Assembly: GCA_036338595.1 (NCBI GenBank)
Contig: JAYZBV010000015.1
Span: forward strand, 14,103 to 78,102
Direction of reading: 5' to 3'
DNA: 64,000 nucleotides
Origin: Planctomycetota bacterium
GTDB taxonomy: Bacteria > Planctomycetota > UBA8108 > UBA1146
Numbering within the stretch: the stretch's first letter is position 1; every line of letters begins with the position of its first letter. Shown one piece after another: positions 7,268 to 63,098 of the stretch. Both the position numbers and the translations under genes were made by a program. The notes under the pieces are model-generated. The model searched no databases, was not told the origin of the DNA, and saw only the letters and a program-made list of their open reading frames with translations.

Positions 7268-9166
7268 ATGGATCTCTCAAATGCAGCGCCCAGGGCGCTC
7301 AAAATGCAGTGGATTACCGTTGCGCTCTTGTTCGTTTCCTCTTCGGTATTCGCAGGAGGTGGACAGTCGCTGAGCATCAGTAGTACCAGTACTCAGGGAC
7401 TCGCACCGGCGAGCATGACCATCAGCCTGGATTCGACAGATGCAACCGAGGGATATGTTCTCGCGGTTGCCTACGACGATTCGCAGGCGAGCGTTTCTGA
7501 TCTCTCCACGGCAGGCACTGCCACCGAGAGTTCCAACTCCGAGTTGGTCGTTCCGGAGATCCTCTCCGGCGGATTTACTCTTGGAGTGGTCGTGGACGCA
7601 GAACCTCCATTCGACGGGCATTCGATACCTGCTGGATCGGGTCAGACTCTGGCTACGGTCACGGTGACCCCGATGGCGGTTGTGTCTGTTGAGACCGATA
7701 TCGATTTCTCCTTCTCTGACAACACGCTCAACAATCCACCTCTGGCCAATATCATCGTCCAGGGTGGAATGTCGGTCGGTGCTGCAGATGGCCTGGGACT
7801 CAATGGGGGCACATTGACTCTCAATGTTCCTCCTCCGGCCACGATGAGCATCGAAGACGGTTCTGCAACTGCAGACGGAGAGGGCAGCACAGGCGATGCT
7901 CGAGTCATGCTCGATAACAGCCTCGGTGGCGTCCAGGGCTTCGTCACCGCCATTTCGCATGATCCTGCCGTGATCACCCTCGAGTCGATCTCCACCGGTG
8001 CGGATACAGATGCAGCTGGCGCCGAGTTCCAGATCTCGAACACCTATGCCAATGGTGGAACCTTTGGAGTCGTGCTCGATTTCTCGAGTCCCTTCGAAGG
8101 TCAGACGATTCCCGAGGGTAATGGCGTTCACCTGGCGAGTTACACCTACTCCTGCAACAACGAAAATATCTATGTTGAGGGAGAGCCTACACCCACCAGT
8201 GAGACCAGTGCCTTGACCCTCACAGATGGGACTCTCGGATCTCCGACGCTCGACAATGTGATCGTCGTGGGTGGTCTGTCGATTTCTCCGCTGCAGGAGA
8301 ATGGCACCTTCACCTGTGATCCGATCGCCTTCCCTGCGGAGGACACGATTCTCTGGATGGAGACCGAGTTCGACGAGGGCTCCGGTAACTACGCCTACCA
8401 CGGTCAGACCGGAGACCTGTGCTTCTTCTATGCCGACGAAGACGATTACATCCAGGGCTTCACCTTCACCGTCTGCTACGACTGCAATCTGACAATTCAT
8501 GAGGACTCCTGGGAGTTCAACGGATCGATCCTGGATCAGGTCGGTGTCGAGTACACCGCGGTACAGGTTGATGACGACCCCGATGACGGAGACGGCTGCG
8601 AACTGGTTGTCGCGCTGCTTCTCGACGCGCTACCGCCTTTCGACGGCCAGACACTTCCGCAGACGATGTCCACCAGCGGCAACTCCGCAGATGGTCGTCT
8701 GTTGGTCGGCAAGATGCGAATCACCGTCGATATGGATGCTGAGTGTAACGAGGATCAGTTGATCGAATGGTGCAACGACATCAACGGCACCGGGGATGTG
8801 AATCTCTACAACAACGTGGTCATCGACTTCGAATCGCTCCAGATCTACGAGCGCAACGACACTCTGGTGCACGTCGTGCCGGAAGAGATCTTCCAGCGTG
8901 GCGACTGCAACAGCGACGACAAGGTCGACCTGGCTGACACCGCAACAATGCTTGCGAACCAGTTCAATGGACTCGATATCCTGTGTCCTGATGCCTGTGA
9001 CTCGAATGATGATGGTCATCTGAACATGGCGGACGCTGTCCACCTGCTCAACTGGCTCTTCAAGTTCGGAGATACACCGCCGGCGCCAGGCCCCCTCGAA
9101 GACGGGCCGGATGCTACTCAAGATGACACGCTGCCAGTATGTGACAGCGACGATACGAACTGTTAG
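7268..9166 (+). CDS. Secreted array protein A1: signal peptide, 3 cohesin-like modules, dockerin-like module
   Basis: Hydrophobic leader ending VFA; repeated ~150 aa beta-rich units (GYVLAVAYD / GFVTAISHD / GFTFTVCYD ... PFDG/PFEG); twin Ca-loops FQRGDCNSDDKVDLAD and DSNDDGHLNMAD; GGAGG RBS. Confidence 0.75.
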   Translation: MDLSNAAPRALKMQWITVALLFVSSSVFAGGGQSLSISSTSTQGLAPASMTISLDSTDATEGYVLAVAYDDSQASVSDLSTAGTATESSNSELVVPEILSGGFTLGVVVDAEPPFDGHSIPAGSGQTLATVTVTPMAVVSVETDIDFSFSDNTLNNPPLANIIVQGGMSVGAADGLGLNGGTLTLNVPPPATMSIEDGSATADGEGSTGDARVMLDNSLGGVQGFVTAISHDPAVITLESISTGADTDAAGAEFQISNTYANGGTFGVVLDFSSPFEGQTIPEGNGVHLASYTYSCNNENIYVEGEPTPTSETSALTLTDGTLGSPTLDNVIVVGGLSISPLQENGTFTCDPIAFPAEDTILWMETEFDEGSGNYAYHGQTGDLCFFYADEDDYIQGFTFTVCYDCNLTIHEDSWEFNGSILDQVGVEYTAVQVDDDPDDGDGCELVVALLLDALPPFDGQTLPQTMSTSGNSADGRLLVGKMRITVDMDAECNEDQLIEWCNDINGTGDVNLYNNVVIDFESLQIYERNDTLVHVVPEEIFQRGDCNSDDKVDLADTATMLANQFNGLDILCPDACDSNDDGHLNMADAVHLLNWLFKFGDTPPAPGPLEDGPDATQDDTLPVCDSDDTNC

Positions 9167-13132: not shown

Positions 13133-14488
13133 ATGAGGAAGAACAGTAGTCTCTGGATGGCCATCGCTGTCCTGGGCATCTCCATCGCCTCGACCGCCGA
13201 TTATGTGGTGGCTGGCGGGGGAGCCACATACAGCATGAGTAGTGGCTCCACGGCTGCGGGCGGCACGATCACGCTGTCGGCAACCCTGGATAACGGTGGA
13301 GGAGATATCAGTGGTTGGTCCTATGGAGTTTGCCATCCTGAGGCGATAGCAACAGCCTCCAATATTGGCGATGGTGATGGAGCTGCCAACAGCACATCGA
13401 CGGTCAATAACGGTGCTCCAGCGAGTTTCGACGAAACCTCCATCTATGCCGGCGGCTGGACTCAAGGTGTGGTCATCGACTTTGTCGGTTGCTGCGTGGT
13501 CGCCTCGGGAACGACTGGATTCCTGATGGCCACTGCCGATTACACGGTGGACACCGCAGCCGCACCGGGAGATTTTTCGGTCGATTATTGTGGCGGAACA
13601 CTGGGATCTCCCGTGGTGGCGAATGTCGTCGTCGTGAATGGAGCTTCCATAGCGCCGATGGTGGAGAACTCTGGCACCATCACCGTGATCGAGGTCCCTG
13701 ATCCCGAGTGGAACTACATCGGTGGGACCTCTGCCGGTAACAACTATCCGGCATCGGCTGGCATCGGCGGAATGTCGGTTGCTGCAGGCTTTTCAATCCA
13801 GGAAAAAGACAACAGTTCCCAGGGCGCAAATTTCCCCAACGAAACACAGGGGTTCTCGATGGATTGCGGGAACGATGGAGCCCTCGTGACTCCCACTGGC
13901 GTCACGATGAGCCTCGGTTTCGATGCGGATTTTGCGGAATCCAACCTGTACGCAGACGCATGGACCCTCGGAGTCGTCTACGACTTTGCCGGTGGAGTCA
14001 CCGTTACCTACGAAACTGCTTCAGAGGTGGTGAGTGTTGCCTATGAGGGCGTTTCTGGCGCACTCGCTGGAGTAGAAGGGGCGACCACGACACCCCTGGC
14101 CTGGAATAACGACACCGGATCGCCACCTGTGGTCAATGTGGTGGTGTTCGGAGGAGGAAGTTACCCGGCGAATTTCAACAATGGATCGATCGAGTTTGTT
14201 GGAACCGTGACCAATGACTTCCAGCGTGCGGACTCGAACGATGATGGAACAGTCAACATTTCAGACATCATCTGGTTGCTCGCGGAACTCTTCAATGGCG
14301 GACCCGTGACCGATTGCGCCAAGGCAGATGATTCAAACAACGACGGCTCGGTGGATGCGGCTGATGCCGTCTTTATCGCAACCTACATCTTTCTCGGCGG
14401 TGCTACACCGGCAGCTCCGTTCGGGACCTGTGGATCGGACCCGGGACAAACTCCCGCAGATTGTGTGAGTTACAACAGTTGCCCTTAG
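13133..14488 (+). CDS. Secreted array protein B2 (divergent B type)
   Basis: Signal peptide; GWSYGVCH, ETQGFSMD, WTLGVVYDF; tail FQRADSNDDGTVNISD / DSNNDGSVDAAD. Confidence 0.75.
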   Translation: MRKNSSLWMAIAVLGISIASTADYVVAGGGATYSMSSGSTAAGGTITLSATLDNGGGDISGWSYGVCHPEAIATASNIGDGDGAANSTSTVNNGAPASFDETSIYAGGWTQGVVIDFVGCCVVASGTTGFLMATADYTVDTAAAPGDFSVDYCGGTLGSPVVANVVVVNGASIAPMVENSGTITVIEVPDPEWNYIGGTSAGNNYPASAGIGGMSVAAGFSIQEKDNSSQGANFPNETQGFSMDCGNDGALVTPTGVTMSLGFDADFAESNLYADAWTLGVVYDFAGGVTVTYETASEVVSVAYEGVSGALAGVEGATTTPLAWNNDTGSPPVVNVVVFGGGSYPANFNNGSIEFVGTVTNDFQRADSNDDGTVNISDIIWLLAELFNGGPVTDCAKADDSNNDGSVDAADAVFIATYIFLGGATPAAPFGTCGSDPGQTPADCVSYNSCP

Positions 14489-43774: not shown

Positions 43775-45535
43775 TCAGCGATCTCGCGGCGTGCGTGAGA
43801 TGCCTAATCGCATGTGCATCGGGGTGTATCGAAAATAGGTTTCAAAGGTGAGCACTCCGAGTGCTGTCTGTGCGACACGGCCACCGGCAGCCCCGATCCA
43901 GTTTGGATCTGGATCCCAGGAGCCCGATGCATCCCCGGAAGTGATTTGCAAGGGCAGGACCTTCTCCTGAAGCTGACGATTCCATCGACTCCAGGGTTCC
44001 CCTCCGATGTGAAACAGGGCGAGCGTACCCGTGTACCAGTAGTACATCGATTGGGGGTGTTGATCCCAATCTCGACGGTCTTCCGGTCGTGGCCCGTGTT
44101 CTGCGATACGGCGTGCGCAGATGAGATTGCGCTCTGCGACCGGGGAGTGCCCGAGTGCCAGCAGCGTGATCAACCCGACCGCATCGATGCCGAACCCTCC
44201 TCGCCCGCGTCCTCTACCTCGGTCGGAGTAGGTGGAATGTCCACCATCACCGATGGCCCGGTCCAGGTATCTCCCGATGGCAGTCAAGGTCTGTTGCTGA
44301 GGGAAGATTCCTGCCTCGATTCCGGCATGAATCGCGAGCACCTGCCAGCCGGTGATGGAGAGATCGTTACGGAGCGAAAGGGATGGGGTGTAGTCCCAGC
44401 CTCCCCCGGCTTGCTGGCTCGATTCCAGGAACAGGATCGCCTTGCGAGCCGCTTCTTCGATCTTCGGATCTGCAGTCAATTGCGCAGTTTCGCACAGTGC
44501 AAAGGCGGCGATGCCGTGATCGTACATGTTACGGGATCCGGTTTCCAAATCGGTGCGGATGCAGCCCTGCGAATCCTGGTGTTCGAGAAGCCACTGCAGA
44601 GATCTTGTCGTCGCCGAGTCGAGTGGGTCGTCTGAAGAGTCGGGAAGATGTCCGTCGCCGAGCAAGGCCAGCAATGCCAAAGCAGTGATCCCTGCACGAT
44701 GTTCAGGATAGCCCGGGCCCTGGCAGGTCTGCTCGACGCCGAGGCAGCGAGCATCGAAATGATCTGGCGACCAGCTTCCATCCGGATCTTGATGGCGGGC
44801 GAGCCAATCGAGTCCTGCCCTGACTGCGCTCTCGGTTGCGGGATTGCCGCCATGGTTTGCGAGAGCTTCGCTTCGCAGTTGCCCTTTTCTACGGCTTCCC
44901 TCTGAACCCTGAGCGGCTCCAATCCCGGTCACCTCGACCTCGACTTCCACTCCTGGAGCCAGGGTCGACTCTGCTTCGTCCTGTGAAACTGGCTCCGGGT
45001 CCGGTTGCGGTTGAGATTCTGGTTCAGGGTCGACCACCTGCGGCGGGTCTGGTTCCTCGACCGCCTTGATCTTCCTGGGTTCGAGCCGAATCACGACGTT
45101 CCATGATCGGGGATCCGGTTCAGGTTCGGGAATCAGCAGCGGAATCAGTATCAATAGCAGGGTGCCGTGCAGGACCATCGAAGCGACCACCGACGAGAAG
45201 GGGTCGGATGGGGTGGGAGCGATTTCCCTCGGCAAGGGTCCAGCCCTGTCGGTGGGGATGGAGGGTCGATTTGGCGTCGGCGGACGAGGGGTACGCGGTT
45301 CGAGGGCAGCGCCCCTCTTTCGACGCGCGATCGATCTGCGCTGGCTGCTGGTTTTCCGTCGACTCGGGCCTTCAGCGGGTGGGTGTTCGGTCGAGGGCAG
45401 GTCGCTGCGGGAACCCTTGCGAGGTACAGAACGAGCGGAAGGTGCGGAAATACGCCGTTTTCCGAAGATGGACCGGAGCCGCAGTCGGAGCCACTGCAGT
45501 TCCTTTTGAAAGATCTGGCGCAGGAATCGAGCCAC
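43775..45535 (-). CDS. Membrane-anchored prenyltransferase/squalene-oxidase-repeat (alpha/alpha barrel) protein
   Basis: SMVLHGTLLLIL TM, Pro/Glu linker, GLDWLARHQDPDGSW, SQQAGGGWDY, YYWYTGT, GGRVAQTA..L; likely GTG start at 45535 after AAGGAG. Confidence 0.8.
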   Translation of the reverse strand: MARFLRQIFQKELQWLRLRLRSIFGKRRISAPSARSVPRKGSRSDLPSTEHPPAEGPSRRKTSSQRRSIARRKRGAALEPRTPRPPTPNRPSIPTDRAGPLPREIAPTPSDPFSSVVASMVLHGTLLLILIPLLIPEPEPDPRSWNVVIRLEPRKIKAVEEPDPPQVVDPEPESQPQPDPEPVSQDEAESTLAPGVEVEVEVTGIGAAQGSEGSRRKGQLRSEALANHGGNPATESAVRAGLDWLARHQDPDGSWSPDHFDARCLGVEQTCQGPGYPEHRAGITALALLALLGDGHLPDSSDDPLDSATTRSLQWLLEHQDSQGCIRTDLETGSRNMYDHGIAAFALCETAQLTADPKIEEAARKAILFLESSQQAGGGWDYTPSLSLRNDLSITGWQVLAIHAGIEAGIFPQQQTLTAIGRYLDRAIGDGGHSTYSDRGRGRGRGGFGIDAVGLITLLALGHSPVAERNLICARRIAEHGPRPEDRRDWDQHPQSMYYWYTGTLALFHIGGEPWSRWNRQLQEKVLPLQITSGDASGSWDPDPNWIGAAGGRVAQTALGVLTFETYFRYTPMHMRLGISRTPRDR

Positions 45536-46103
45536 AGAGGGCTCCTTTCGCTCTCCTGGGGGCCTGCAGGACGGCGTCTCTGTCCCCATCCTGGAGGCGA
45601 GAAGAGTGGGATGCCACCCTCGCGAATATTGACTCTTCTCGGCGGGGGGAATACGATGTCTCGCTGTCCCCTCACGGGGATCTTCGGCGGGAACGATGGC
45701 TCCTCCGGTCGCCAGGTTTCCACGGTGATTTGCACTCTTTCCGGGTGATCCGGAGGGGATAGATCGCCAGCCGGGGAGTGTCACTTGTGGCACAGTGAGG
45801 GGGTGAAGCGTCAACTTCCCTTGACGGTAATTGGTTCCATGTGATCTCTCAGAGCACAGTGGAAGCCCGTTTCCTCACCTGCAGAGGTGTTGCTATTGTT
45901 ATGGCCGGTGATTTGCGTGTCTTTTTTAGGAAATGGAACGAGTTGAAACCGGCACCCCGCCCGAGGTGGGAATGTCCCGTTTGTCATGGGATCCGAAGAG
46001 TTTCGCTCGTCTTGAAATGAAGCAGCCATACCCCGGCTCCGGAGTGCCCACCCGGAGGTGCATGGGGGAAAGGAGAGCCAGCGTGCTCCACTCGGAGATG
46101 TCG

Positions 46104-50291: not shown

Positions 50292-51362
50292 ATGCCAAGA
50301 ATTGTTCATGTCATTGGAACCGGGACGATAGGCGAGCCGCTGATCGGCCTGCTCTGTCACCTCAAGGATCAACTAGGCATCGACGAGGTGACCTTCAACA
50401 AGCGCACTCCCCTCTATACCGATCGCTCCAAGGTTCGGACGCTACTCGAAAGAGGAGCATTACTATCCACTGCTCAGGAAACGATACCTGGTTTCGAGAA
50501 ACTCGGAATGCGTGCTTCGTTCACGACCAGAGATGCGATCGAGCGTTCTTCAGTTGTGATCGACTGTACGCCATCCGGTTCAGGTCTTACCAACAAGGAA
50601 GAATATTACAGCAGTGCCAACGACGTGAAGGGCTTTGTTGCACAGGGATCCGAGTTCGGTTTCGGGAAGATGTATGCGCGCGGCATCAATGACGATGCCC
50701 TGATTCCCGGGACCGATCGATATCTTCATGTGGTCTCCTGTAACACACACAATCTGGCGGCCATCATCAAGACGATGGCGCTCGGAAATGGAGAGATGCC
50801 CAACAATCTGGTGTCTGCCGACTTCGTTTGCATGAGACGGGCAAATGATGTCAGTCAGGATGCTGGATTTGCCCCCTCGCCTCAGGTTGGAAAGCACAAG
50901 GACCCGCAATTCGGCACCCATCACGCAAGAGATGCGTATCACCTGTTCCAGACCCAGAATCTGGAATACCCGCGCTTGTTCTCCAGTGCAGTGAAGATGA
51001 ATTCTCAGTACATGCACACACTCAGGTTCCGGCTCGAAGTGGAGGAACCGACATCCACCGAGCAAATCCTTGAACGGGTGCGGGCAAATGACCGCCTGGC
51101 TCTGACATTTAAGAAATCGGCGAACCAGGTCTTCAGCTTCGGAAGAGATCATGGCTTCTTCGGCAGGATCCTCAATCAGACCGTGATTCCGCACGAGACA
51201 CTGTCCGTGGTTGGCGGTACCCAGATCACGGGATTCTGTTTCACTCCTCAGGACGGCAACAGTCTTCTGTCATCGGTGGCGAGTTCCTGCTGGCTACTGG
51301 ATCCAGATGGATACGAAGATAACTTGCAGGCACTCAAGCCCTGGTTCTTCGAGGAAGTCTAG
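50292..51362 (+). CDS. Archaeal-type (class II) GAPDH-like dehydrogenase
   Basis: GTGTIG Rossmann motif, VIDCTP, AQG, catalytic VVSCNT, RRAND, THH..D, MH; start at MPRIVH. Confidence 0.75.
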   Translation: MPRIVHVIGTGTIGEPLIGLLCHLKDQLGIDEVTFNKRTPLYTDRSKVRTLLERGALLSTAQETIPGFEKLGMRASFTTRDAIERSSVVIDCTPSGSGLTNKEEYYSSANDVKGFVAQGSEFGFGKMYARGINDDALIPGTDRYLHVVSCNTHNLAAIIKTMALGNGEMPNNLVSADFVCMRRANDVSQDAGFAPSPQVGKHKDPQFGTHHARDAYHLFQTQNLEYPRLFSSAVKMNSQYMHTLRFRLEVEEPTSTEQILERVRANDRLALTFKKSANQVFSFGRDHGFFGRILNQTVIPHETLSVVGGTQITGFCFTPQDGNSLLSSVASSCWLLDPDGYEDNLQALKPWFFEEV

Positions 51363-52157: not shown

Positions 52158-52238
52158 TCCCTGATTGTCCCGTCTGGGAGTCAGAATTCCAGCCGATCCT
52201 GGGCTGTAGAGGAAGGTAGTTGGAGATATCCTCCTGCC

Positions 52239-53729
52239 ATGTCCTCGCTCGATTGGCTCGTCATCGGCGGCTACCTGGCTCTGGTATTGACCATCGGACT
52301 TCGTGTGTCTCGTCGTAACGACAGCGCCGATGATCTGCTGCTGGCGGGCCGTGGTCTCGGCCCGACTGCGGTGATGCTCTCGCTGATCGCCACCGAACTG
52401 TCGGCCGCCACCTTCATCGGTGTTCCCCAGAATTCCTTCGGTCAACTGAGCTGGTATTACCTGCAGTTCGCCTTCGGCGCACTGATCGCCAAACTGGTAC
52501 TCTCTCGGACGCTGGTTCCGCTCTACCATCGACTCGGCGTCAAGACGGTCTACGGGTTGATCGAACACAGCTTTGGCCCGATCGCCTGGAGGGGTACCGC
52601 TCTGGCGTTCGTGGTCGGGCGGATTCTCGCCAGTGGCGTTCGGCTCTATCTCGCAGCCATCGCATTCTCTGCGCTGACCCAGTTCTCGATGGAGTTCTCT
52701 GTTCTGATCTGCGCATCGATCGCGGGAACCTACGCAGGAATCGGTGGGATCCGCTCGGTGATTGCGACCGATGTGATCCAGGGTGGCGTGTTCATCGTCT
52801 CTGCGCTGGCGCTGCTGTCGGTGGCAGTGGCGTCGATTCCCGGAGGAGTGGAGACCTTTCTCGACTGGATGAGTCAGACCGATTCCACGCAGATCATCTT
52901 CTGGCCCTCGGAGGTGGCCCACCAGGGCGGTGGCGGCTTCCTTGGCTGGCTGTCCGACGGTAAGTCGTTGCCGGTGGCGCTGATCGGAGGTTTCTTTCTC
53001 ACCATGGCGACTCATGGGACCGACCACGACATGGTTCAGCGGCTGCTGACCTGCAAGGATGGCCGCTCAGCAGGACGGGCTCTGGTGTTCTCCGGGATCC
53101 TCAACATTCCCCTGACGGTGCTGTTCCTTTTGCTGGGAACGGCGCTAGCGTGCTCCAGTTCCTTCACTCCATCGGCGACCCTCATCGATTCGCAGGATGT
53201 GGTGCCGCTCTTTGCCAGGGACCACTTGCCGTCAGGTTTGCTGGGACTCTTTCTCGCCGGGCTACTGGCGGCTGCGATGTCGAGTCTCGATTCTGCCATC
53301 TGTGCCATCTCCGCGACCTGGAGCGTCGATGTGCTGCAGAAGAAGACCAATAATCAGCCGCGGTCGATGCGTATCATCGCACTGGTCATCACTGTATTGC
53401 TGGCGCTGACGGCGATGGGGTTTTCCTGGCTTCAACAACGGGGATGGTCTGCCACCGAGGACCTGGTCACGCTGGCACTCTCCTCGATGACCATCATCTA
53501 CGGTGCGCTGCTCGGTGTGTTTCTGTGTGCTGCTTTTCTTCCACGACGGGGCAGCGGGCGCAGCGCAGTGGCGGGTCTGTTGGTGGGAACCGTGGTTGGT
53601 TTTGCCCTGTTTTTTCAGAAACCTTTACTGGGAATCGAAGATGTGTGGATCGCCTGGCCGTGGTGGATCGTCATCAGTGCGCCATTGACCGCGGGGATCT
53701 GCGCCATCGAATCGAGGGAGAAGCGATGA
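52239..53729 (+). CDS. Sodium:solute symporter family transporter
   Basis: DWLVIGGYL, LAGR, SLIATELSAATFIGVP, TDVIQ, DHDMVQRLL, AAAMSSLDS; about 13 TM segments. Confidence 0.92.
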   Translation: MSSLDWLVIGGYLALVLTIGLRVSRRNDSADDLLLAGRGLGPTAVMLSLIATELSAATFIGVPQNSFGQLSWYYLQFAFGALIAKLVLSRTLVPLYHRLGVKTVYGLIEHSFGPIAWRGTALAFVVGRILASGVRLYLAAIAFSALTQFSMEFSVLICASIAGTYAGIGGIRSVIATDVIQGGVFIVSALALLSVAVASIPGGVETFLDWMSQTDSTQIIFWPSEVAHQGGGGFLGWLSDGKSLPVALIGGFFLTMATHGTDHDMVQRLLTCKDGRSAGRALVFSGILNIPLTVLFLLLGTALACSSSFTPSATLIDSQDVVPLFARDHLPSGLLGLFLAGLLAAAMSSLDSAICAISATWSVDVLQKKTNNQPRSMRIIALVITVLLALTAMGFSWLQQRGWSATEDLVTLALSSMTIIYGALLGVFLCAAFLPRRGSGRSAVAGLLVGTVVGFALFFQKPLLGIEDVWIAWPWWIVISAPLTAGICAIESREKR

Positions 53730-55225
53730 TCGGCAGACGATTATGGATCGGCATCCCCGATCCTGAAATCTCACCGGAGACCTCCCGTCACCTGCTGCAG
53801 ATCGATCCGGGTGGCGTGATCCTGTTCGGAAGAAACGTCACATCTCGTGCACGGTTGACCGACCTGGTGACTGAACTGAGGGCATTGCTGGGATCCCATC
53901 TGCGCATCTGCATCGATCAGGAAGGGGGCAGAGTGGTGCGAATCCCCGAGGGGGTCACCATCTTTCCCGGCAATCTGTCGCTGGGAGCGGCGGCCTGCAA
54001 TGATCGGAGCCGTGCGCTCGCACTGGCCCGGCTTCAAGGCCAGATCTCCGGCCAGGAACTGCACCAGATCGGCATCGATGTGAATCTCGCGCCCTGTGTC
54101 GATCTGATCGAGCGCAGTGAAGCGCGTGGCATCGGATCTCGCTCCTTTGGATCGGACGCTGCACTGGCGCTGGTACTGGCGACCGAGATCGGTAGCGGGC
54201 ACCGGCAGTACGGGGTGCACGATTGCTGGAAGCACTATCCAGGGATCGGGTCGGTGAAGGTGGATCCTCATCATGGTCTGCCACGGCTGGAGAGTCAGGT
54301 CAGCGAGACTCATCTGCTTCCCTTCGCGGGAGCGAGCGCTGCCGGAGCTTCGATGGTGATGACGACTCACGTGGTCGCAGAACGTCTCGACCCGATCCAT
54401 CCGGTCACGACATCCGCTGCTGCGGTGAGCTACCTGCGAGAGGATCTTGGTTATCGAGGAGTGGTCATCACCGATTGTCTGGAGATGGGTGGTGTCGCTG
54501 GAATTGATTTCGAGCAGGTGATCCGAGGGGCGGCGGCTGCGGGCCACGATGCTCTGCTGGTCAGCCACACTCCGGCTCGGCAGTTGGAAGCTCTGCGGGT
54601 ACTCGAACGCCTCATCGATGCGGAGCAGGACAGTCAGGAACAGCATCAGCAGAGTCTCACTCGACTCGACTCGCTGTCGAGGATTGTGGTGGAGCATCCG
54701 ATCGCGCCTCTCCACGGCGAGTCGGTGGCGCTGGAGATCGCCCGCTGCGGAACGACGCTGCTGGCGGGGCCAGCGGCGACACTATCAGGATCCACAAGAG
54801 GGTTACTGGTGTTGCCGCAGTTGCACACCACCAGCCCCGTCGAGGATCCTCTTCAGGGGTTGCAGTTGAACCTGCTGGAAGAAGAGCTGGGCGACGGAGT
54901 GGAGACCCTTTCGATCGATGCAGAACCGAGTCGAGAACAGATCGAGCGGGTACTCACCACAGCACGAGGGGTTGCGGAGACGATCCTGGTGCTGAAGGGA
55001 TTTCGTCACAGTACAGCGGCCCGATCGCTGGTCGAGGAGCTGGCGACGCAGCAGCATCGACTGATCATCGTGTTACTGGAAGATCCGCGAGACCTGGTGG
55101 CGATTCCCGCAGCAGCGGGAATCTCGGTGATCACTGCCCATGGCTGCAGAGCGGTGCATCAGCAGGCGATCGCCGATGTCCTGCTGGGGCGAATTACACC
55201 CTCCGACCACTCTCCGATGAAGTGA
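53726..55225 (+). CDS. nagZ: GH3 beta-N-acetylhexosaminidase (NagZ type)
   Basis: GGVILFGRN, IDQEGGRV.R, RSFG, KHYPGIG....DPH, ITDCLEM; ATGA overlap with the SSS gene. Confidence 0.85.
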   Translation: MIGRRLWIGIPDPEISPETSRHLLQIDPGGVILFGRNVTSRARLTDLVTELRALLGSHLRICIDQEGGRVVRIPEGVTIFPGNLSLGAAACNDRSRALALARLQGQISGQELHQIGIDVNLAPCVDLIERSEARGIGSRSFGSDAALALVLATEIGSGHRQYGVHDCWKHYPGIGSVKVDPHHGLPRLESQVSETHLLPFAGASAAGASMVMTTHVVAERLDPIHPVTTSAAAVSYLREDLGYRGVVITDCLEMGGVAGIDFEQVIRGAAAAGHDALLVSHTPARQLEALRVLERLIDAEQDSQEQHQQSLTRLDSLSRIVVEHPIAPLHGESVALEIARCGTTLLAGPAATLSGSTRGLLVLPQLHTTSPVEDPLQGLQLNLLEEELGDGVETLSIDAEPSREQIERVLTTARGVAETILVLKGFRHSTAARSLVEELATQQHRLIIVLLEDPRDLVAIPAAAGISVITAHGCRAVHQQAIADVLLGRITPSDHSPMK

Positions 55226-55265: not shown

Positions 55266-56678
55266 TCAGAGGCGGACGTACTCGAATTCCAGCGGTTGGC
55301 CATTGATCCCGCGAGAAGGCGCAGCGATCCAGTTGGCCATCTTCCCCGGTTCAATCACCTGGTTCATGATGGAGACCAGGTAATCATTGTCCTCGGTGTT
55401 GAGTAGCCAGCGGCCTGAATTTGCGTCGTAGTGGTCCTTGGTGATGACATTGCCTTCGGGATCGAAAGAGTGCTCGGAGTAGAGCCCCTGATGGCGGTGA
55501 AAGCGTCGACTCGGCAGCGTGAGCCTTGTCTCTAGCCCCGCCTTTTCGAGGGTCCTGTTCCACTTCCTGAGAGCGCGTTGACAGTCATCGATGTATTCGT
55601 CGCGGAGAACCTCGTTGATGGCGTTGCGGTAAGGGACCTCGTCTTCGACCACAGCGCCATCGACGACCTGGGGAATGATCTTGATGCCATCTTTCATGAC
55701 ATGGTCCTCGTAGCGAGAATGTTCCTTGTATCGGCCCTTCAGGCCCTCGCCGAAGAAGTTGGCGGCGTTGGAGGAGATTTCTCCTCCGAACAGGTCGAGA
55801 CTGTAGGTGAACCAGTAGTTGATCGACCGCTGGATCATCTCGAGCGAGATCCCGCCTGCGCTCATCGGGTCTCCATCGGTCTCCCGCGTCAACTCCGCAC
55901 TGCGCTTGATGATTCGATCGAGGCCAGATTCTCCCACGAACAGGTGATGGGCTTCCTCGGTGAGCATGAAATTGCAGGTCCTGGCGAGCGGCTCGAAGCC
56001 ACTTTCTGCCAGCGATGCGAGCTGGAACTTGCCATCGCGGTCGGTGAAGTGAGTGAAGCAGAAGAAGGAGAGCCAGTGGTCACAGGCCTCGTTGAAGGCG
56101 TTGAGGATTCGAGGCTTGTCCTCGTCTCCACTGCGCCTGCAAAGGAGTTCCTCCGCCTCGTCACGACCATCTTTGCCGAAGAAGCGAAACAGCAGGTAGA
56201 CCATCGCCCACAGGTGTCTGCCCTCCTCCACATTGACCTGGAAGAGATTCCTCATGTCATAAAGCGACGGAGCGATGGTTCCGAGAAATCGTTGTTGCTC
56301 GACCGATGCAGGCTCTGTATCCGCCTGGGTGACGATGATGCGGCGTAAATTTCCCCGGTACTCGCCAGGGATATCTTGCCAGACAGGTTTCCCGAAATGA
56401 TCACCGAATCCGATGCTGTTTTCCGACTCGGTGGGCGTCAGGAAGATGCCCCAGCGATACTCGGGCATCTTGACATAGTCGAAGTTGGCCCAGCCGCCCG
56501 ATTCGACCGACACCGCGGTTCGCAGGTAGATGTCGTTGGTCTGGAACCCCGCAGGCCCCATGTCATTCCACCACTCCATGTAGAGGGGCAGCCAGTGCTC
56601 AAGAGCTCTCTGGAGTCGTTTGTCTCCGGCGAGATCGACGTTATTGGGAATTTTTCCGCTCTGATCAACGTTGCCCAT
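55266..56678 (-). CDS. boxB: Benzoyl-CoA 2,3-epoxidase subunit B
   Basis: KIPNNVDL, YVKMPEYRWGI, DTEPASVEQQR, EEGRHLWAM, TDRDGKFQL, EEAHH di-iron motifs, FEYVRL end. Confidence 0.95.
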   Translation of the reverse strand: MGNVDQSGKIPNNVDLAGDKRLQRALEHWLPLYMEWWNDMGPAGFQTNDIYLRTAVSVESGGWANFDYVKMPEYRWGIFLTPTESENSIGFGDHFGKPVWQDIPGEYRGNLRRIIVTQADTEPASVEQQRFLGTIAPSLYDMRNLFQVNVEEGRHLWAMVYLLFRFFGKDGRDEAEELLCRRSGDEDKPRILNAFNEACDHWLSFFCFTHFTDRDGKFQLASLAESGFEPLARTCNFMLTEEAHHLFVGESGLDRIIKRSAELTRETDGDPMSAGGISLEMIQRSINYWFTYSLDLFGGEISSNAANFFGEGLKGRYKEHSRYEDHVMKDGIKIIPQVVDGAVVEDEVPYRNAINEVLRDEYIDDCQRALRKWNRTLEKAGLETRLTLPSRRFHRHQGLYSEHSFDPEGNVITKDHYDANSGRWLLNTEDNDYLVSIMNQVIEPGKMANWIAAPSRGINGQPLEFEYVRL

Positions 56679-56699
56679 CGAGTTCCCCTTTCCCCGCTC

Positions 56700-58334
56700 T
56701 CAAACCCGATCCCATGCAAAGTCTGGTCGTTCCGGTCGCCCGTATAGAGTCAAGGCTCCACTGGGACCGGTGGCGTTGGGCCGGATGAAAATCCAGTTCT
56801 GCCAGGCACTGAGTCGCCCGAATATCTTGCTCTCCAGGTTCTCTGGACCGGCGAAGCGGAGATTCGCCTCCATTCCGGTCAATGAATCCGGAGAGAGGCT
56901 CACTCGTTCCTCGATGGCTACCGGCACCATGTCCTCGTAATCAAACTCATCCAGCGCTTCGGTAACCAGGCCCAACTTCTCGGCAGAGCTGGCATCCAGA
57001 CGCTCGTAGTTCCCCATCGTCTGTTCCAGCAGGTTCGGTTCCCCGAGCAGGCGGCACTGACAGCGAGTGATGTCAGTGGTCATCGGTAGCAACCCTTCGT
57101 TCATCTTCGATCGTTGCACCTCGACACCCTTCTCGTCCAGCATGTAGATCCGGTCGCAGGCAAGGGCGATTTCCAGCATCGATCCGCCAAAACAGGAGCC
57201 CTGTTCTATCAGTGCGAAGAAGCTGCAAGAGGTGCGTTCGAGCCGCTGAATTACATGGCTCATCAGGTACAGGATCTGATCGACAAACCAGTCCCCTTTA
57301 TTTTCGACGAGGATCTGGTCCCAGCCCTGGATGTCATCGAGATTTCCTTTGGTTCTGACCAGTGCCAACCCGATACCGTTTCGATTGACTCGTAGATCGA
57401 GAAGGGCGTCTTCCAGTTCACGAGTAAACCGCAGTGGCCAGAAGGAATCCCCTGCTTCATGAATCTGCTCCGGAGTCGTGGGGGCATCCGCTACTGGTGG
57501 TACCTCGATGGTGATCTCTGCGGTGCGTTGCTCCGGCTTGTAGGCTACCGACAGGGTCGAACTGCGCCGCACACCATCGACCTCGGAGACCTCGATGGGG
57601 CCGAGCGGGATGCCCTTGCGCTCGAGGCGACCGGGACGATCGGCTTCGATCTGGTCGAGGTGCTGTTTCAACTGGTCGTCGAATCGAGATCGAGGCGCGA
57701 CGGTATCGACGAGGCCCCAATCCAGAGCTCGTTTGCCCTTGAATCCCTCCGCCAGGGTGCAGAAGACATCGGCACGGTCGCGACGAACCATGCGCTTGTC
57801 GACGAGACGGGTCAGTCCTCCGGTGCCAGGAAGTACGCCCAGTAGCGGCGTCTCGGGCAGACTGACAGCACTATTACCATCATCGATCAACCAGATCTCG
57901 TCACAGGCGAGAGCCAGTTCGTATCCTCCTCCTGCGCAGGGACCGGTCACTGCGCAGATGGATCGAACATCTGCCTGGGCGGCCCAATCCTCCAGCTCGC
58001 ATCGAGTCTCGTTGGTGAATTTACAGAAGTTCACCTTCCAGGAATGGCTGGAGATGCCGAGCATATGAATGTTGGCGCCGGAGCAGAAAACCTGCTCATG
58101 ACTGCTGCTGACCACAAGGGAGGTGATTTCCGGGTGTTCGAATCGGAGCCGTCTGACGATGTCGGCCAGCTCGATATCCACTCCCATATCGTAGGAGTTC
58201 AACTTCAAGTCGTAGCCTTCCCGAAGCGGGAAGGCGGGGTCCACACTCATGAGGATCCGCATCACCTGGCCGTCCTTGTTCACTTCCCAGTGACGGTATC
58301 GAGAGGGATCTACCTGGAAGGAGATCGGTTCCAT
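56700..58334 (-). CDS. boxC: 2,3-epoxybenzoyl-CoA dihydrolase
   Basis: [63 protein letters not shown]. Confidence 0.95.
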
Positions 58335-58575
58335 CAGTTGCTCCCTTCGACTGGCAGTGCACCGGGATGCAAGAATCTGGCATGGGCGCGTTCAACGGCC
58401 CGGCATCTCGATCATCCTGCCGTATCGAGGCGGGTGGGGCAACCGATCCGGAACCCTGGAAGCCGCTCGGGGCGCAGGATCGAGACGATTCACTGGTCCC
58501 AAGAGGATTCGATCGGATATGATCTCCGGTTCGTGGGAGGATCCCTTTCCAGGTCAGGAAGGTCGGTGCCCGGTC

Positions 58576-58989
58576 ATGCGGCGGACGATGCTGCACTCAA
58601 AAATACACAGAGCGACCGTCACAGGTGCGGACCTCGATTACGAGGGCAGCGTGACGATCGACACCGATCTCCTCGAAGCTGCCGACATCTTGCCGGGGCA
58701 ACAGGTTCACATCTGGAATGTCACCCGTGGCAGCCGCATCGTCACTTACGCCCTGCCCGGGCCCGCTGCATCGGGAACGGTCTGTATCAATGGTGCGGCG
58801 GCACATCAGAACTCACCGGGAGATCTCGTGATCATCGCCAGTTGGGTCGAACTGGAAGAAGCGAGGATCTCCGAGCACGAGCCGAAGGTGGTCCGGGTCG
58901 ATTCCAGTAACCGAATCACCGGCACCTGGCAGGAGATCCCAGGACCTGCGAACCACGCAGACTCCGGGGTGGCCACCTTCGAGGAGTAA
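58576..58989 (+). CDS. panD: Aspartate 1-decarboxylase
   Basis: [20 protein letters not shown] autocleavage site, TYA, NGAAAH, GDLVII. Confidence 0.96.
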
Positions 58990-59006
58990 CCGTCGAGCGG
59001 GGGGAA

Positions 59007-59558
59007 ATGTCTCAGGAACGAACCACCCGGGCCTTTCAGGTCAACGGTGAAGATCATCACGTGTCATTCTCGGTCCACCACAGTCTTCTCGAAGTATTGC
59101 GTGAGGAACTGGGGCTGACCGGCACCAAACACGGATGTGAACTGGGAGAGTGCGGCACCTGTACCGTGCTGATCGATGGCAAGCCGATTCTCAGTTGCCT
59201 GGAACTGGCGGCAGAATGCGAGGGGCGGCAGATCGAGACGGTCGAGGGGATGATGCGGGGCAACGAGTTGCATCCGTTACAGGATTGTTTCGCCGACCTC
59301 GGAGCCGCTCAGTGCGGATACTGCACCCCGGGGATACTCTTGGCCGCTCAGGCGCTGCTGGCAGAGAATCCCTCTCCGACTCGTGATCAAATCGTTTCTG
59401 CCCTGTCAGGAAATCTGTGCCGGTGCACCGGATACCACAAGATCCTCGAGGCGATCGAGTGGGCTGCTGCCCGCATGAGAGGCGACGAGAAGTATCGTCC
59501 TCCCGAGAGTGCCATCTACGGTGATCCTGTCGAGGTGGAAAAGGCCTCCGATGGCTAA
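59007..59558 (+). CDS. hcrC: 2x[2Fe-2S] subunit, 4-hydroxybenzoyl-CoA reductase gamma-like
   Basis: TGTKHGCELGECGTCTV, QCGYCTPG, GNLCRCTGY; first gene of a C-A-B order. Confidence 0.8.
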   Translation: MSQERTTRAFQVNGEDHHVSFSVHHSLLEVLREELGLTGTKHGCELGECGTCTVLIDGKPILSCLELAAECEGRQIETVEGMMRGNELHPLQDCFADLGAAQCGYCTPGILLAAQALLAENPSPTRDQIVSALSGNLCRCTGYHKILEAIEWAAARMRGDEKYRPPESAIYGDPVEVEKASDG

Positions 59559-62076
59559 CGCCGAGCATCCCGAGGAGCAAGAGGGGCCTGTCACCAGCGA
59601 CCAGTTGCGGCTGATCGGGACACCGTTTCGGCGAGTCGACGGTCGTGCCAAGGTGACGGGACAGACGCGCTTTGCTGATGATCTGTCATTTCCTCGAATG
59701 GTCCACATGAAACTGGTGCGCTCCACGGTGCCGCACGCAAGGATCGTCGGCATCGATACCAAGAAGGCGAGTGAGATGCCCGGTGTCGTCGGTTTCTTGA
59801 CCGGTGAGTCGATGCCGGATCCCTTCGGGATCCTGCCGGTGAGTCAGGACGAGCACGCGCTCTGCATCGACAAGGTGCGATTTGTCGGGGATCCGGTGGT
59901 GGCGGTGGCAGCACTCACCGAGGACCAGGCACACGAGGCCGCCCTCGCCGTGGAAGTCGAGTACGAACCACTCGAGACGATCGCCACCGTCGAGGAGGCG
60001 ATTTCCACTCCCGAGCCACGAATCCACGACTACGGCGATGAAGGCAACCTTCACAAGAAACTGTCGATGGAGTTCGGGGATGTCGACGGCGGTTTCGACG
60101 AAGCGGATCAGATCTTCGAGGACATCCTGTACTTCGAGGGCAATACTCACCTGCCGATGGAACAACACGCAACCGTGGCGCTGACGGAGGAGATCGATCG
60201 GGTCACCGTGTACTCGTCGACCCAGACACCTCACTACCTGCACCGCTCGCTGGCCAAGGTACTGGGACTGCCCGCCGCGAGGATTCGCGTCATCGCCTGT
60301 CCCAACGGCGGTGGATTCGGTGGCAAGAGCGATCCCTTCAATCACGAGATCTGTGCCGCAAAGATGGCCCTGACCCTGGGGCGACCGGTCAAGATCTGTC
60401 TCACCCGAGAAGAGGTCTTCTACTGTCACCGGGGCAGACACCCGGTGTTGATGAAGATCCGAACCGGAGTCAAGAAGGACGGCACCCTCACTGCCCAGCA
60501 CCTTCAGACCGCTCTCGATGGCGGCGCCTACGGAAGTTATGGCGTCGCGAGCACCTATTACACCGGTGCTCTGCAAACGGTCACCTACGAGCTTCCGAAG
60601 TATCGCTTCGAGAGTATTCGTGCCTTCACCAACAAGCCCCCCTGTGGACCCAAGCGCGGCCACGGAACCCCCCAGCCAAGATTTGCCTTCGAGGTCCACC
60701 TCGACAAGATCGCCCACGAACTGGCGATCGATCCTGCACAACTTCGTCTGCAACAACTCGTCGCTGCCGACAGTGTCACATCCAACTGGTTGAAGGTCGG
60801 TTCGATGGGACTTGGAAAATGCATCGAAGCGGTGGTGGAAGGCAGCGGCTGGAACCAGCGTCATGGAAAGTTGCCAGAGGGCAGGGGGCTCGGCCTCGCC
60901 TGTGGCTCCTACCTCAGTGGCGCAGGCCTTCCCATCTACTGGAATCACATGCCGCAATCGGGGGTGCAGTTGCAACTCGATCGTTCCGGAGGAGTGGCGC
61001 TCTTCTGCGGCGAGACGGAGATCGGCCAGGGCTCTGATTCGGTGATTGCGGCCATCACTGCGGAAATCCTCGGTATCGATCTGCACGATATTCGACTCTG
61101 CGTCGCCGATACTGACCTGACCCCGGTCGATCTCGGCAGTTACTCATCGCGAGTCACCTTGATGGCTGGAAATGCCGCGATCCAGGCCGCCGAGCGAGCG
61201 CGAACCCTGGTCGCCAGGGGAGCTGCGGAAAAACTGGATGTTCCGGCAAGGGAACTGGTGTTTGCCGAGGGGCGCGTCTTCCATGGCGAGAATCCTGACC
61301 ATGGAATGACCTTCCAGGAAGCGGTGGTCGAGGCGGAATCGCGTTTCGGTACCCTCGGAACCACCGGAAGTTACACCCCTCCACGCTCTCCTGGACGCTA
61401 TCGCGGTGCCGGAGTGGGACCTTCTCCAGCCTACAGTTACAGCGCCGCCGTGGTGGAAGCAGAAGTCGATCCGGCGACCGGCATCTACCGCATCGAACAT
61501 GTCTGGATGGCGCACGATGTCGGCAAGTGCATCAATCCGGCGCTGGTGATGGGGCAGATCGAGGGATCGGTCTACATGGGACTGGGCGAGGCGATGATGG
61601 AGGAACAGGTGTTTCGCCGCTTGCCGAAGAAACGCTCGGGTGCGCTGGTGCACAAGCATCCGTCGATGCTGGAGTACAAGTCGCCGACCTTTGCCGATAT
61701 GCCGCCAGTGACCAGTTACATCATCGAGGATCCTGATCCCAACGGTCCCTTCGGGGCCAAGGAGGTGGGGCAGGGTCCGTTGCTCCCGATGATGCCAGCG
61801 GTCGCCAACGCCATCTTCGATGCGGTGGGGGTGAGGGTTGATCAGGTGCCGATTGCACCGCACATGGTCATGCAGGCGATGGAGGCGAGAGAGAAGGGCA
61901 AGCCCGGCCGCTTCGGGCCCAAGTCCTTCCCCGAGATCGAGTTCGGCGTGCCGCTCAAGGTCCCCACTCCTGCGGAGGGCGGCGACGGCAAGGCCACCAA
62001 CAAAGATGATGCTGGCGTGCGGGCCGGAACCGGAACCATGACCGATCGCAAGGATGCGGTGAAGGGGGAGAACTGA
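59551..62076 (+). CDS. hcrA: Molybdopterin subunit, 4-hydroxybenzoyl-CoA reductase alpha-like
   Basis: Xanthine oxidase family motifs (GGGFGGK, IGQGS, FGAKEVG) plus HcrA-like PFGILP, PPCG..RGHGT, GKLP.GRGLG, GSYSSRVT. Confidence 0.8.
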   Translation: MANAEHPEEQEGPVTSDQLRLIGTPFRRVDGRAKVTGQTRFADDLSFPRMVHMKLVRSTVPHARIVGIDTKKASEMPGVVGFLTGESMPDPFGILPVSQDEHALCIDKVRFVGDPVVAVAALTEDQAHEAALAVEVEYEPLETIATVEEAISTPEPRIHDYGDEGNLHKKLSMEFGDVDGGFDEADQIFEDILYFEGNTHLPMEQHATVALTEEIDRVTVYSSTQTPHYLHRSLAKVLGLPAARIRVIACPNGGGFGGKSDPFNHEICAAKMALTLGRPVKICLTREEVFYCHRGRHPVLMKIRTGVKKDGTLTAQHLQTALDGGAYGSYGVASTYYTGALQTVTYELPKYRFESIRAFTNKPPCGPKRGHGTPQPRFAFEVHLDKIAHELAIDPAQLRLQQLVAADSVTSNWLKVGSMGLGKCIEAVVEGSGWNQRHGKLPEGRGLGLACGSYLSGAGLPIYWNHMPQSGVQLQLDRSGGVALFCGETEIGQGSDSVIAAITAEILGIDLHDIRLCVADTDLTPVDLGSYSSRVTLMAGNAAIQAAERARTLVARGAAEKLDVPARELVFAEGRVFHGENPDHGMTFQEAVVEAESRFGTLGTTGSYTPPRSPGRYRGAGVGPSPAYSYSAAVVEAEVDPATGIYRIEHVWMAHDVGKCINPALVMGQIEGSVYMGLGEAMMEEQVFRRLPKKRSGALVHKHPSMLEYKSPTFADMPPVTSYIIEDPDPNGPFGAKEVGQGPLLPMMPAVANAIFDAVGVRVDQVPIAPHMVMQAMEAREKGKPGRFGPKSFPEIEFGVPLKVPTPAEGGDGKATNKDDAGVRAGTGTMTDRKDAVKGEN

Positions 62077-63098
62077 TGCTGAGACTGCCCGCGTTCACCT
62101 TCCATCAGCCCTCTACCATCGAGGAGGCGGTCGCCTTGCTCGCAGCCGATCCCGCCAACACGAGAGTGGTTGCCGGGGGCACCGATCTGTTTCCCAACAT
62201 GAAGCGTCGTCACCAGGGTGCCGGGTCGGTGGTGTCCTTGAGAGGGATCGATGCTCTGCGTGGCATCAGCGAAGCCGATGATGGCGGGTTGATCATCGGG
62301 GCGACCACCACTCTCGATACCATCACCCGTGATGAGAGGGTGCAGAAGTGTTACCCGGGCCTGACCACTGCCGTGGCCAGCATCTCCAGCCCGGTGCTCA
62401 GAAATGCCGGCACCATCGGCGGCAACCTGTGCCTCGACACGCGCTGTACCTACTACAACCAGAATGAGGAATGGCGTCGCAGTATCGATTACTGCATGAA
62501 GGAGGAGGGCGAGATCTGCTGGGTCGCTCCCAGTAGCCCCCGCTGCTGGGCGGTCTCCAGCGGCGATTCGGTACCGATGCTGTGTGCACTCGGAGCCGAG
62601 ATCACGCTCGTCTCCAGCGATGGGGAGCGAACCCTGCCTCTGGCGGGTCTGTTCCGTGACGATGGCATCGAGTTTCTCTCCAAGAAACCGGAAGAGATCC
62701 TCACCACCATTCGCATCCCTGCGCCTTCCGGCGAAAGAACCGCCTTCTGGAAACTACGCCGCCGCGGATCGATCGATTACGGCGTGTTGAGTGTCGCCAT
62801 AGCCGGCTGGTGCAACGGCGAGACTACTGATCGCATCGAGATCTGGCTCGGCTCGGTGGGCAGCACCCCGGTACGATGCAACGACAGCATCGCAGCGCTG
62901 ATCGGAAAGCCCATCGACGATGAGACCATCGCCGAGGCCTCCGCCCTGGCGCGCAAGGGCGCCGGCGCCAACCCCCTCGGCAACACCGACTTCTTACCGC
63001 AATGGCGCGGCAAGATGATCGAGAAGTATGTCGACGCAGTGCTGCGCGAAGTGGCGGGACTGCCGAGACAGAGGATGGCGCCGCAGCACCCGCTGTAA
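62076..63098 (+). CDS. hcrB: FAD subunit with [4Fe-4S] insertion, 4-hydroxybenzoyl-CoA reductase beta-like
   Basis: AGGTDL, RNAGTIGGNL followed by the Cys-rich insert CLDTRCTYYNQ..WR...YCMK..G.IC......RCWA typical of HcrB. Confidence 0.85.
   Translation: MLRLPAFTFHQPSTIEEAVALLAADPANTRVVAGGTDLFPNMKRRHQGAGSVVSLRGIDALRGISEADDGGLIIGATTTLDTITRDERVQKCYPGLTTAVASISSPVLRNAGTIGGNLCLDTRCTYYNQNEEWRRSIDYCMKEEGEICWVAPSSPRCWAVSSGDSVPMLCALGAEITLVSSDGERTLPLAGLFRDDGIEFLSKKPEEILTTIRIPAPSGERTAFWKLRRRGSIDYGVLSVAIAGWCNGETTDRIEIWLGSVGSTPVRCNDSIAALIGKPIDDETIAEASALARKGAGANPLGNTDFLPQWRGKMIEKYVDAVLREVAGLPRQRMAPQHPL

Follow-up and report, generated by a model that had tools for sequence, protein, structure and literature searches.

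Why should a bacterium keep genes for the O2-dependent degradation of benzoyl-coenzyme A (CoA) back to back with genes for an enzyme whose usual name suggests anaerobic aromatic metabolism? This question is raised by a 64,000-nucleotide stretch of DNA from an uncultured planctomycete of the order UBA1146 (positions 14,103 to 78,102 of contig JAYZBV010000015.1, assembly GCA_036338595.1), hereafter called the window, which lies on contig C15 of the host genome G000 (2.91 Mb, 88.3% complete, 7.2% contaminated). Here, boxC and boxB on the minus strand and panD, hcrC-, hcrA- and hcrB-like genes on the plus strand point away from each other. All six open reading frames named in the original prediction were re-located in the window, and the shared region that it put at about 240 bp measures 241 bp. 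The prediction took the cluster for a hybrid pathway in which HcrCAB turns 4-hydroxybenzoyl-CoA into benzoyl-CoA and feeds it directly to Box. We favour a form of this reading at about an even chance: a molybdenum (Mo) enzyme related to Hcr, with glutamine in place of the catalytic glutamate, would draw on ferredoxin for electrons to dehydroxylate 4-hydroxybenzoyl-CoA, after which benzoyl-CoA would be processed with O2 by BoxB, BoxC and BoxD.

The product of boxB (55266..56678, minus strand), a diiron epoxidase by family, scores 719.7 bits with TIGR03225, above the cut-off of 499.1, and matches PDB 3per with 598.8 bits, the E/H motifs being identical in the alignment. Directly upstream, the minus-strand gene at 56700..58334 encodes a protein of 544 amino acids that matches the whole TIGR03222 model at 686.1 bits, just under the cut-off of 712.3, with the next family at 101 bits. 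Given the full-length match and the position beside boxB, we treat it as the probable BoxC, the 2,3-epoxybenzoyl-CoA dihydrolase responsible for ring opening. BoxD, the semialdehyde dehydrogenase of the pathway, is encoded elsewhere in the genome (C77:4592-6151) and passes its cut-off (NF008868, 629.4 versus 444). The module thus resembles BoxABCD of Aromatoleum (Azoarcus) evansii (PDB 3PER; TIGR03222, TIGR03224, TIGR03225), but G000 lacks BoxA (the NADPH-dependent reductase), BoxR and a benzoate-CoA ligase.

The other half of the cluster encodes, on the plus strand, a small subunit of 183 amino acids with Fer2 and Fer2_2 domains, predicted to hold two [2Fe-2S] clusters (hcrC-like, 59007..59558), a molybdopterin subunit of 841 amino acids (hcrA-like, 59551..62076) and a flavin adenine dinucleotide (FAD) subunit of 340 amino acids (hcrB-like, 62076..63098). 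The ATG start of the hcrA-like gene overlaps the hcrC-like gene by 8 nt, and the hcrA- and hcrB-like genes share 1 nt. Among solved structures, HcrCAB of Thauera aromatica (PDB 1RM6/1SB3; TIGR03193-5) stands by far closest to the A and B subunits, with 597.8 bits for 1rm6_A (next structure 270) and 194.9 bits for 1rm6_B (next 99). Both enzymes consist of three xanthine oxidase family subunits, and both carry an extra loop with four cysteines in the FAD subunit. In the window protein these are C124, C140, C148 and C157, which align to the cysteines of 1rm6_B, are all present in 86 of the 86 relatives covering the loop and are predicted to bind a [4Fe-4S] cluster. A 49-row tree, whose outgroup did not fall cleanly on one side of a branch, places the enzyme and its close relatives in a clade (Shimodaira-Hasegawa-like approximate likelihood ratio test, SH-aLRT, 99) inside a 34-row clade (SH-aLRT 99) to which canonical HcrA belongs as well. 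Four Glu-bearing HcrA-like sequences from planctomycetes without boxB (L196-L199 in G088, G090, G092 and G093; 925-937 bits) form the sister group to canonical HcrA. Three of the named sequences closest to the Mo subunit, at 89-95% identity, are planctomycete records, two of them labelled UBA1146.

The difference that sets this clade apart is a single residue. Opposite Glu726 of 1rm6_A (counted from the alignment), where all five structure alignments printed have Glu, the window protein has Gln741; judging by the motif, this position would correspond to bovine Glu1261. Among 220 aligned rows binned by identity, Gln occurs in 85 of 85 rows with a residue at this position (2 gaps) at 65% identity or more, while Glu is found in 8 of 11 rows at 45-65%, 42 of 43 at 38-45% and 70 of 79 below 38%. 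Mo-site motifs are near-invariant, and in alignments several pocket positions are shared with canonical HcrA: the Tyr of GAYxxYG, the His of RGHG and the Trp of the PxxW loop. An AlphaFold model built for the A subunit from its single sequence had a predicted local distance difference test score (pLDDT) of 32.8 and was unusable.

We found both modules to be core to the host order. The class set comprised 59 genomes, 34 from the order (three families, 13 genera) and 25 from the rest of the class. An HcrA-like protein is present in all 34 order genomes (29 full length at 773-826 bits, four partial and one at 534 bits). Of these, 33 also carry boxB, compared to none of the 25 others. Both modules lie on one contig within 8 kb in 21 of the 33 boxB genomes, and in another two they are split at contig ends, in register; six cases are unresolved. 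This linkage exceeds chance. The order-wide profile alone proves little, since an unrelated enzyme of the Mo-bis(pyranopterin guanine dinucleotide) type (Mo-bisPGD; C77:62289-66664, L153) with a fused NrfC/NrfD-like partner is distributed alike (32/34 versus 0/25). That enzyme has at least 8000 relatives, with generic names only among those listed. As a PadBCD-like source of benzoyl-CoA it was rejected: beyond the generic names, it occurs in 15 of 43 other carriers, and no aromatic genes were seen by eye in 17 neighbourhoods.

The linkage proposed for survey in the original prediction is not restricted to planctomycetes. Among the 80 loci nearest to the Mo subunit, many of them on short contigs, nine place boxB and boxC no more than 10 kb away: three in the arrangement of the window and, in Gammaproteobacteria, five co-directional and one convergent. 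Including a further arrangement with two ligases (G442), the Gammaproteobacteria show three gene orders besides that of the window in which the enzyme is linked to boxBC, making four gene orders in two phyla in all. Two members of the clade, L051 and L035, are 69-71% identical to the window enzyme. At L051, boxBC and the Gln enzyme are joined to the verified genes dch, had and oah of anaerobic benzoyl-CoA metabolism as well as korAB, and the same genome (G032) has a bcrBC pair; at L035 the enzyme stands beside verified bcrC and bcrB. The L051 region belongs to a gammaproteobacterial supercluster (G032:C29, about 88,000-121,000; L051, L200) of paa, bcr, dch/had/oah, korAB, the Gln-clade Mo enzyme and boxR-boxC-boxB. 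An even sample of 400 Gammaproteobacteria contained, besides the centre genome, 19 boxB genomes, 11 with BoxA and eight without. With the centre genome excluded, the Gln clade was found in two of these 19 genomes versus 0 of 380 others (Fisher p = 0.002, with kin not independent and only two candidates scored per genome); both carriers lack BoxA. Canonical HcrA occurred in one genome of the sample, together with BoxA and BoxB.

How the two modules might work together can be sketched from the remaining gene content of G000. A phenolic acid would be converted to its CoA ester, for which the only candidate ligase is a distant PaaK-like protein on C99 (98.9 bits), kept in five of five order members tested (58-78%). 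The single 2-oxoacid:ferredoxin oxidoreductase (C102, of KorAB type, with its KorA-type subunit over cut-off) could pass electrons via a ferredoxin-like protein of 77 amino acids (C71, motif read by eye) to the [4Fe-4S] loop and from there, as in canonical Hcr, to FAD, the two [2Fe-2S] clusters and Mo. The Gln enzyme would then reductively remove the para-hydroxyl of 4-hydroxybenzoyl-CoA, and its product benzoyl-CoA would be epoxidised by BoxB with O2 and opened by BoxC. As BoxA is missing, some other protein would have to reduce BoxB, and the simplest choice would be the C71 ferredoxin again. BoxD and beta-oxidation enzymes would finish the degradation; thiolase, hydratase and 3-hydroxyacyl-CoA dehydrogenase homologues are present, as are XdhC and a MocA-like gene, and no second xanthine-oxidase-family Mo subunit was detected in G000.

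Two absences stated in the original prediction were borne out: in the 88%-complete G000 we found no Bcr/Bzd-type subunit (BcrB/C, BzdN/O; HGD-D family, class I; 0 matches) and no intradiol ring-cleavage dioxygenase. A bcrBC-type pair does exist in one larger order member, G003, whose boxB coordinates are identical to those of G060. For pobA, two flavin monooxygenases used as queries in a local search, made without a hidden Markov model search, returned four relatives in G000, one of which (C95:48950-50041) is unclassified. Entry from tyrosine or phenylalanine, be it through HPPD, through Paa or through an aromatic ammonia-lyase, was rejected for G000, which has no HPPD, no PaaA and HutH as its sole lyase. 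The suggestion that the pathway is a low-oxygen route found no support. A single heme-copper oxidase was detected, which matches the aa3-type CtaD model best (655 versus 671), alternative complex III is present, and a kynurenine/3-hydroxyanthranilate cluster for tryptophan (C104:29,800-35,800, L209; TDO, flavin monooxygenase, kynureninase, 3-HAO, amidohydrolase, cyclase) includes O2-dependent enzymes; together these genes mark G000 as an aerobe. Nothing specific to low oxygen was seen in the genome, bd oxidase not having been searched for.

Several results weigh against a 4-hydroxybenzoyl-CoA reductase coupled to Box. All three subunits fall below the cut-offs of their family models, although TIGR03194 and TIGR03195 remain the best models for A and B: 801.3 versus 994.55 for the hcrA-like protein (canonical members reach 1274-1302 bits), 275.7 versus 404.55 for the hcrB-like protein and 177.8 versus 257.8 for the hcrC-like protein, to which an XdhC model gives 180.2. 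Identity of the A subunit to a canonical HcrA is 42%, and the pocket reads GGKSDP instead of GARTE. PMC11760930, PMC10420851 and PMC13753352 describe the glutamate apparently replaced by Gln741 as one that the xanthine oxidase family cannot do without, reductive dehydroxylation included. In the best tree, the sister of canonical HcrA is a separate Glu-bearing group and not the Gln clade, although a tree forcing the latter two together was not rejected (approximately unbiased test, p = 0.064). The hcrCAB label of the original prediction calls for a qualifier: 1rm6 is nearest and the Cys loop is in place, but given the missed cut-offs, the separate clade and Gln741, the enzyme is Hcr-like and not canonical HcrCAB, and any activity on 4-hydroxybenzoyl-CoA is for the same reasons something we infer.

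Further points against the coupling concern its partners. BoxA was not found in G000 by profile search (best 24.7 bits). The search for aromatic CoA ligases gave six AMP-binding matches, none of the known benzoate/4-hydroxybenzoate type, in this 88.3% complete genome, nor was a benzoate-family ligase found in seven order members (G001-G005, G007, G039) or a CoA-transferase III in G000. In four of the 33 boxB order genomes, all of family f2, the modules are clearly unlinked. Among 50 carrier genomes that we chose from the 80 loci, mostly incomplete assemblies and some with long contigs, 17 have boxB, eight a bcrBC-type pair, a further seven a distant HGD-D pair and four paaA over cut-off; 20 have none of boxB, HGD-D and paaA, so that where the enzyme occurs, a sink for benzoyl-CoA of known kind is often missing. 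Paa was considered as the sink of carriers without Box or Bcr and rejected on the same count of four in 50. Finally, canonical 4-hydroxybenzoyl-CoA reductase is described as O2-sensitive (PMC12771579), and the window enzyme sits in an apparent aerobe without genes for class I benzoyl-CoA reductase.

There is a precedent for such a pathway. In Aromatoleum aromaticum EbN1 growing on 3-(4-hydroxyphenyl)propanoate, 4-hydroxybenzoyl-CoA is converted to benzoyl-CoA by presumptive reductive dehydroxylation in oxic as well as anoxic growth and then enters Box (PMC9765128). Table S1 of that study lists hcrABC transcripts peaking on oxic 4-hydroxyphenylpropanoate, with BoxB present, and HcrB and HcrC proteins only under this condition, HcrA having one further low score on oxic acetate (PMC9765128). 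As EbN1 forms HcrABC and BoxB during oxic growth, Hcr chemistry can run in O2-respiring cells. The logic of an Hcr-to-Box pathway is therefore not new. EbN1 differs from G000 in that it also has Bcr and aryl-CoA ligases and that, going by locus tags, a long distance separates hcr from box. Metagenomic bins of SAR324 are reported to have boxBC and 4-hydroxybenzoyl-CoA reductase, though not as a joint pathway (PMC4782131). A further likeness is urolithin C dehydroxylase (Ucd) of Enterocloster bolteae, a xanthine-oxidase-family enzyme removing a phenolic OH para to an ester; it keeps the glutamate (E741), has no [4Fe-4S] loop and uses NADH (PMC12771579, PMC11760930). BoxA-less box clusters have also been noted before (PMC10803450). 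What is new here is an order-wide, BoxA-less case of Hcr-like and Box modules in small-genome planctomycetes without an aryl-CoA ligase of known type. The literature searched, which covered few subscription papers, contained no description of an hcr-box gene cluster or of the Gln clade, nor of the cluster or the Gln variant in this planctomycete lineage.

Could the Gln enzyme then feed Box from a different substrate? Another substituted aroyl-CoA, such as a dihydroxy-, amino- or halo-benzoyl-CoA, would make the exchange of Glu for Gln and the altered pocket an adaptation. The invariance of Gln, the clade-specific pocket motifs and the association of the clade with both Box and Bcr clusters fit this explanation, as does the finding that the neighbours include PaaK-like and other ligases of a non-benzoate kind rather than a 4-hydroxybenzoate ligase. 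We nevertheless consider it unlikely, if less so than the alternatives below: the Tyr, His and Trp positions named above match canonical HcrA, and across the 80 neighbourhoods there is no recurring gene that would point to one particular other substrate. Regarding ligases, two related genomes (G046, G045; loci L138 and L139) carry one TAG stop within a match to the benzoate-ligase family. A decidedly improbable alternative is that the molybdo-flavo-iron-sulphur complex substitutes for BoxA, oxidising some substrate or relaying electrons so as to reduce BoxB via the [4Fe-4S] loop and ferredoxin. BoxA is over cut-off in none of 43 genomes (33 order members and ten other boxB carriers of the clade), both Gln-clade genomes of the even sample are BoxA-less, and loss of the catalytic Glu could mean that the Mo site no longer transfers oxygen. 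Yet six of the eight BoxA-less boxB genomes in that sample have no Gln-clade match (2/8 versus 0/11, p = 0.16), 33 of the 50 carriers have no boxB, and the near-invariant Mo-site motifs fit a working catalytic site. One BoxA-less cluster (L249) moreover has a small ferredoxin-like gene of its own; located at 8614-8925 between boxB and a benzoate-family ligase (G386), it is itself a candidate BoxB reductant.

It is also conceivable, though we think it improbable, that the enzyme acts outside benzoyl-CoA metabolism altogether and that its adjacency to boxBC in the order is inherited gene order. The low share of boxBC-linked loci (9 of 80, many contigs being short) would agree with this, as would the like distribution of the unrelated Mo-bisPGD enzyme and the tolerance of the locus for passengers (panD, nagZ, a sodium symporter). 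Most Thermoanaerobaculia carriers likewise have a TetR-like gene (labelled by similarity) upstream and no aromatic partner; their benzoate-family ligases stand apart from the Mo enzyme, in apparent tryptophan/anthranilate clusters. Against this explanation, four gene orders in two phyla join the enzyme to boxBC, it is also found in bcr clusters, and it is enriched in boxB genomes of an independent sample. Dehydroxylation of 4-hydroxybenzoyl-CoA ahead of Box remains our preference: it draws on 4-hydroxybenzoyl-CoA reductase as nearest solved relative, the shared 34-row clade, the Cys loop and fixation across the order, together with recurrent boxBC linkage, bcr-cluster neighbours, the enrichment just mentioned and EbN1. 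The proposal that Hcr feeds Box thus keeps its BoxB, BoxC and BoxD and a conserved linkage, but lacks BoxA and a ligase of known type, and the step from 4-hydroxybenzoyl-CoA would be carried out by an enzyme of putative activity.

Why does this matter? Automatic annotation names the Gln clade '4-hydroxybenzoyl-CoA reductase', which reads as anaerobic aromatic degradation, whereas G000 is an aerobe by gene content and its enzyme is without the catalytic glutamate. If the Gln form is active, glutamate would be dispensable for reductive dehydroxylation, with direct bearing on the mechanism of Mo hydroxylases. The case also bears on the electron source of BoxA-less Box clusters (eight of the 19 boxB genomes in the even sample) and, if true, would mean that an order of planctomycetes without cultured members takes part in the turnover of aromatic compounds. 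In a bolder version, which we put forward as unlikely, a widespread Mo clade dehydroxylates aromatic CoA esters without the 'essential' glutamate, in O2-respiring cells and on one ferredoxin circuit with a BoxA-less BoxB. Hcr-Box would then be a core trait of the whole small-genome order and, with HPPD, Paa and intradiol dioxygenase all missing from G000, maybe its sole way to use phenolic or tyrosine-derived carbon.

The divergent intergenic region (58335..58575, between boxC and panD) contains short conserved blocks across six aligned family members. The first of the plus-strand genes, panD (58576..58989), encodes an aspartate 1-decarboxylase (TIGR00223, 144.5 bits, cut-off 106). It adjoins hcrC in only four of 80 related loci, is missing from the linked clusters of G056, G057 and G061, and is probably a passenger; a tie to the pathway through CoA supply, possible in itself, is not conserved. 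Two RNA runs (X1, X2) yielded contigs, mostly 85-95% alike, that span parts of boxB, boxC, panD, hcrC and hcrA; as contigs of relatives only, they are no evidence of transcription or habitat. Elsewhere in G000, near-duplicate gene sets on contigs C31/C69, C46/C85 and C53/C29/C11 fit the contamination figure. On the other side of the cluster, a sodium:solute symporter gene and a GH3 NagZ-like gene (52209-55225, plus strand) converge on boxB and stay next to it in several genomes of family f1, even with the hcr-like genes on a separate contig. At lower coordinates, 50292-51362 (plus strand) encodes a protein distantly related to archaeal type II glyceraldehyde-3-phosphate dehydrogenase (84 bits, below the cut-off), kept near the cluster across family f1 at 80-87% identity, and the protein encoded at 43775-45814 (minus strand) has weak squalene-cyclase-type repeats at its C-terminus.

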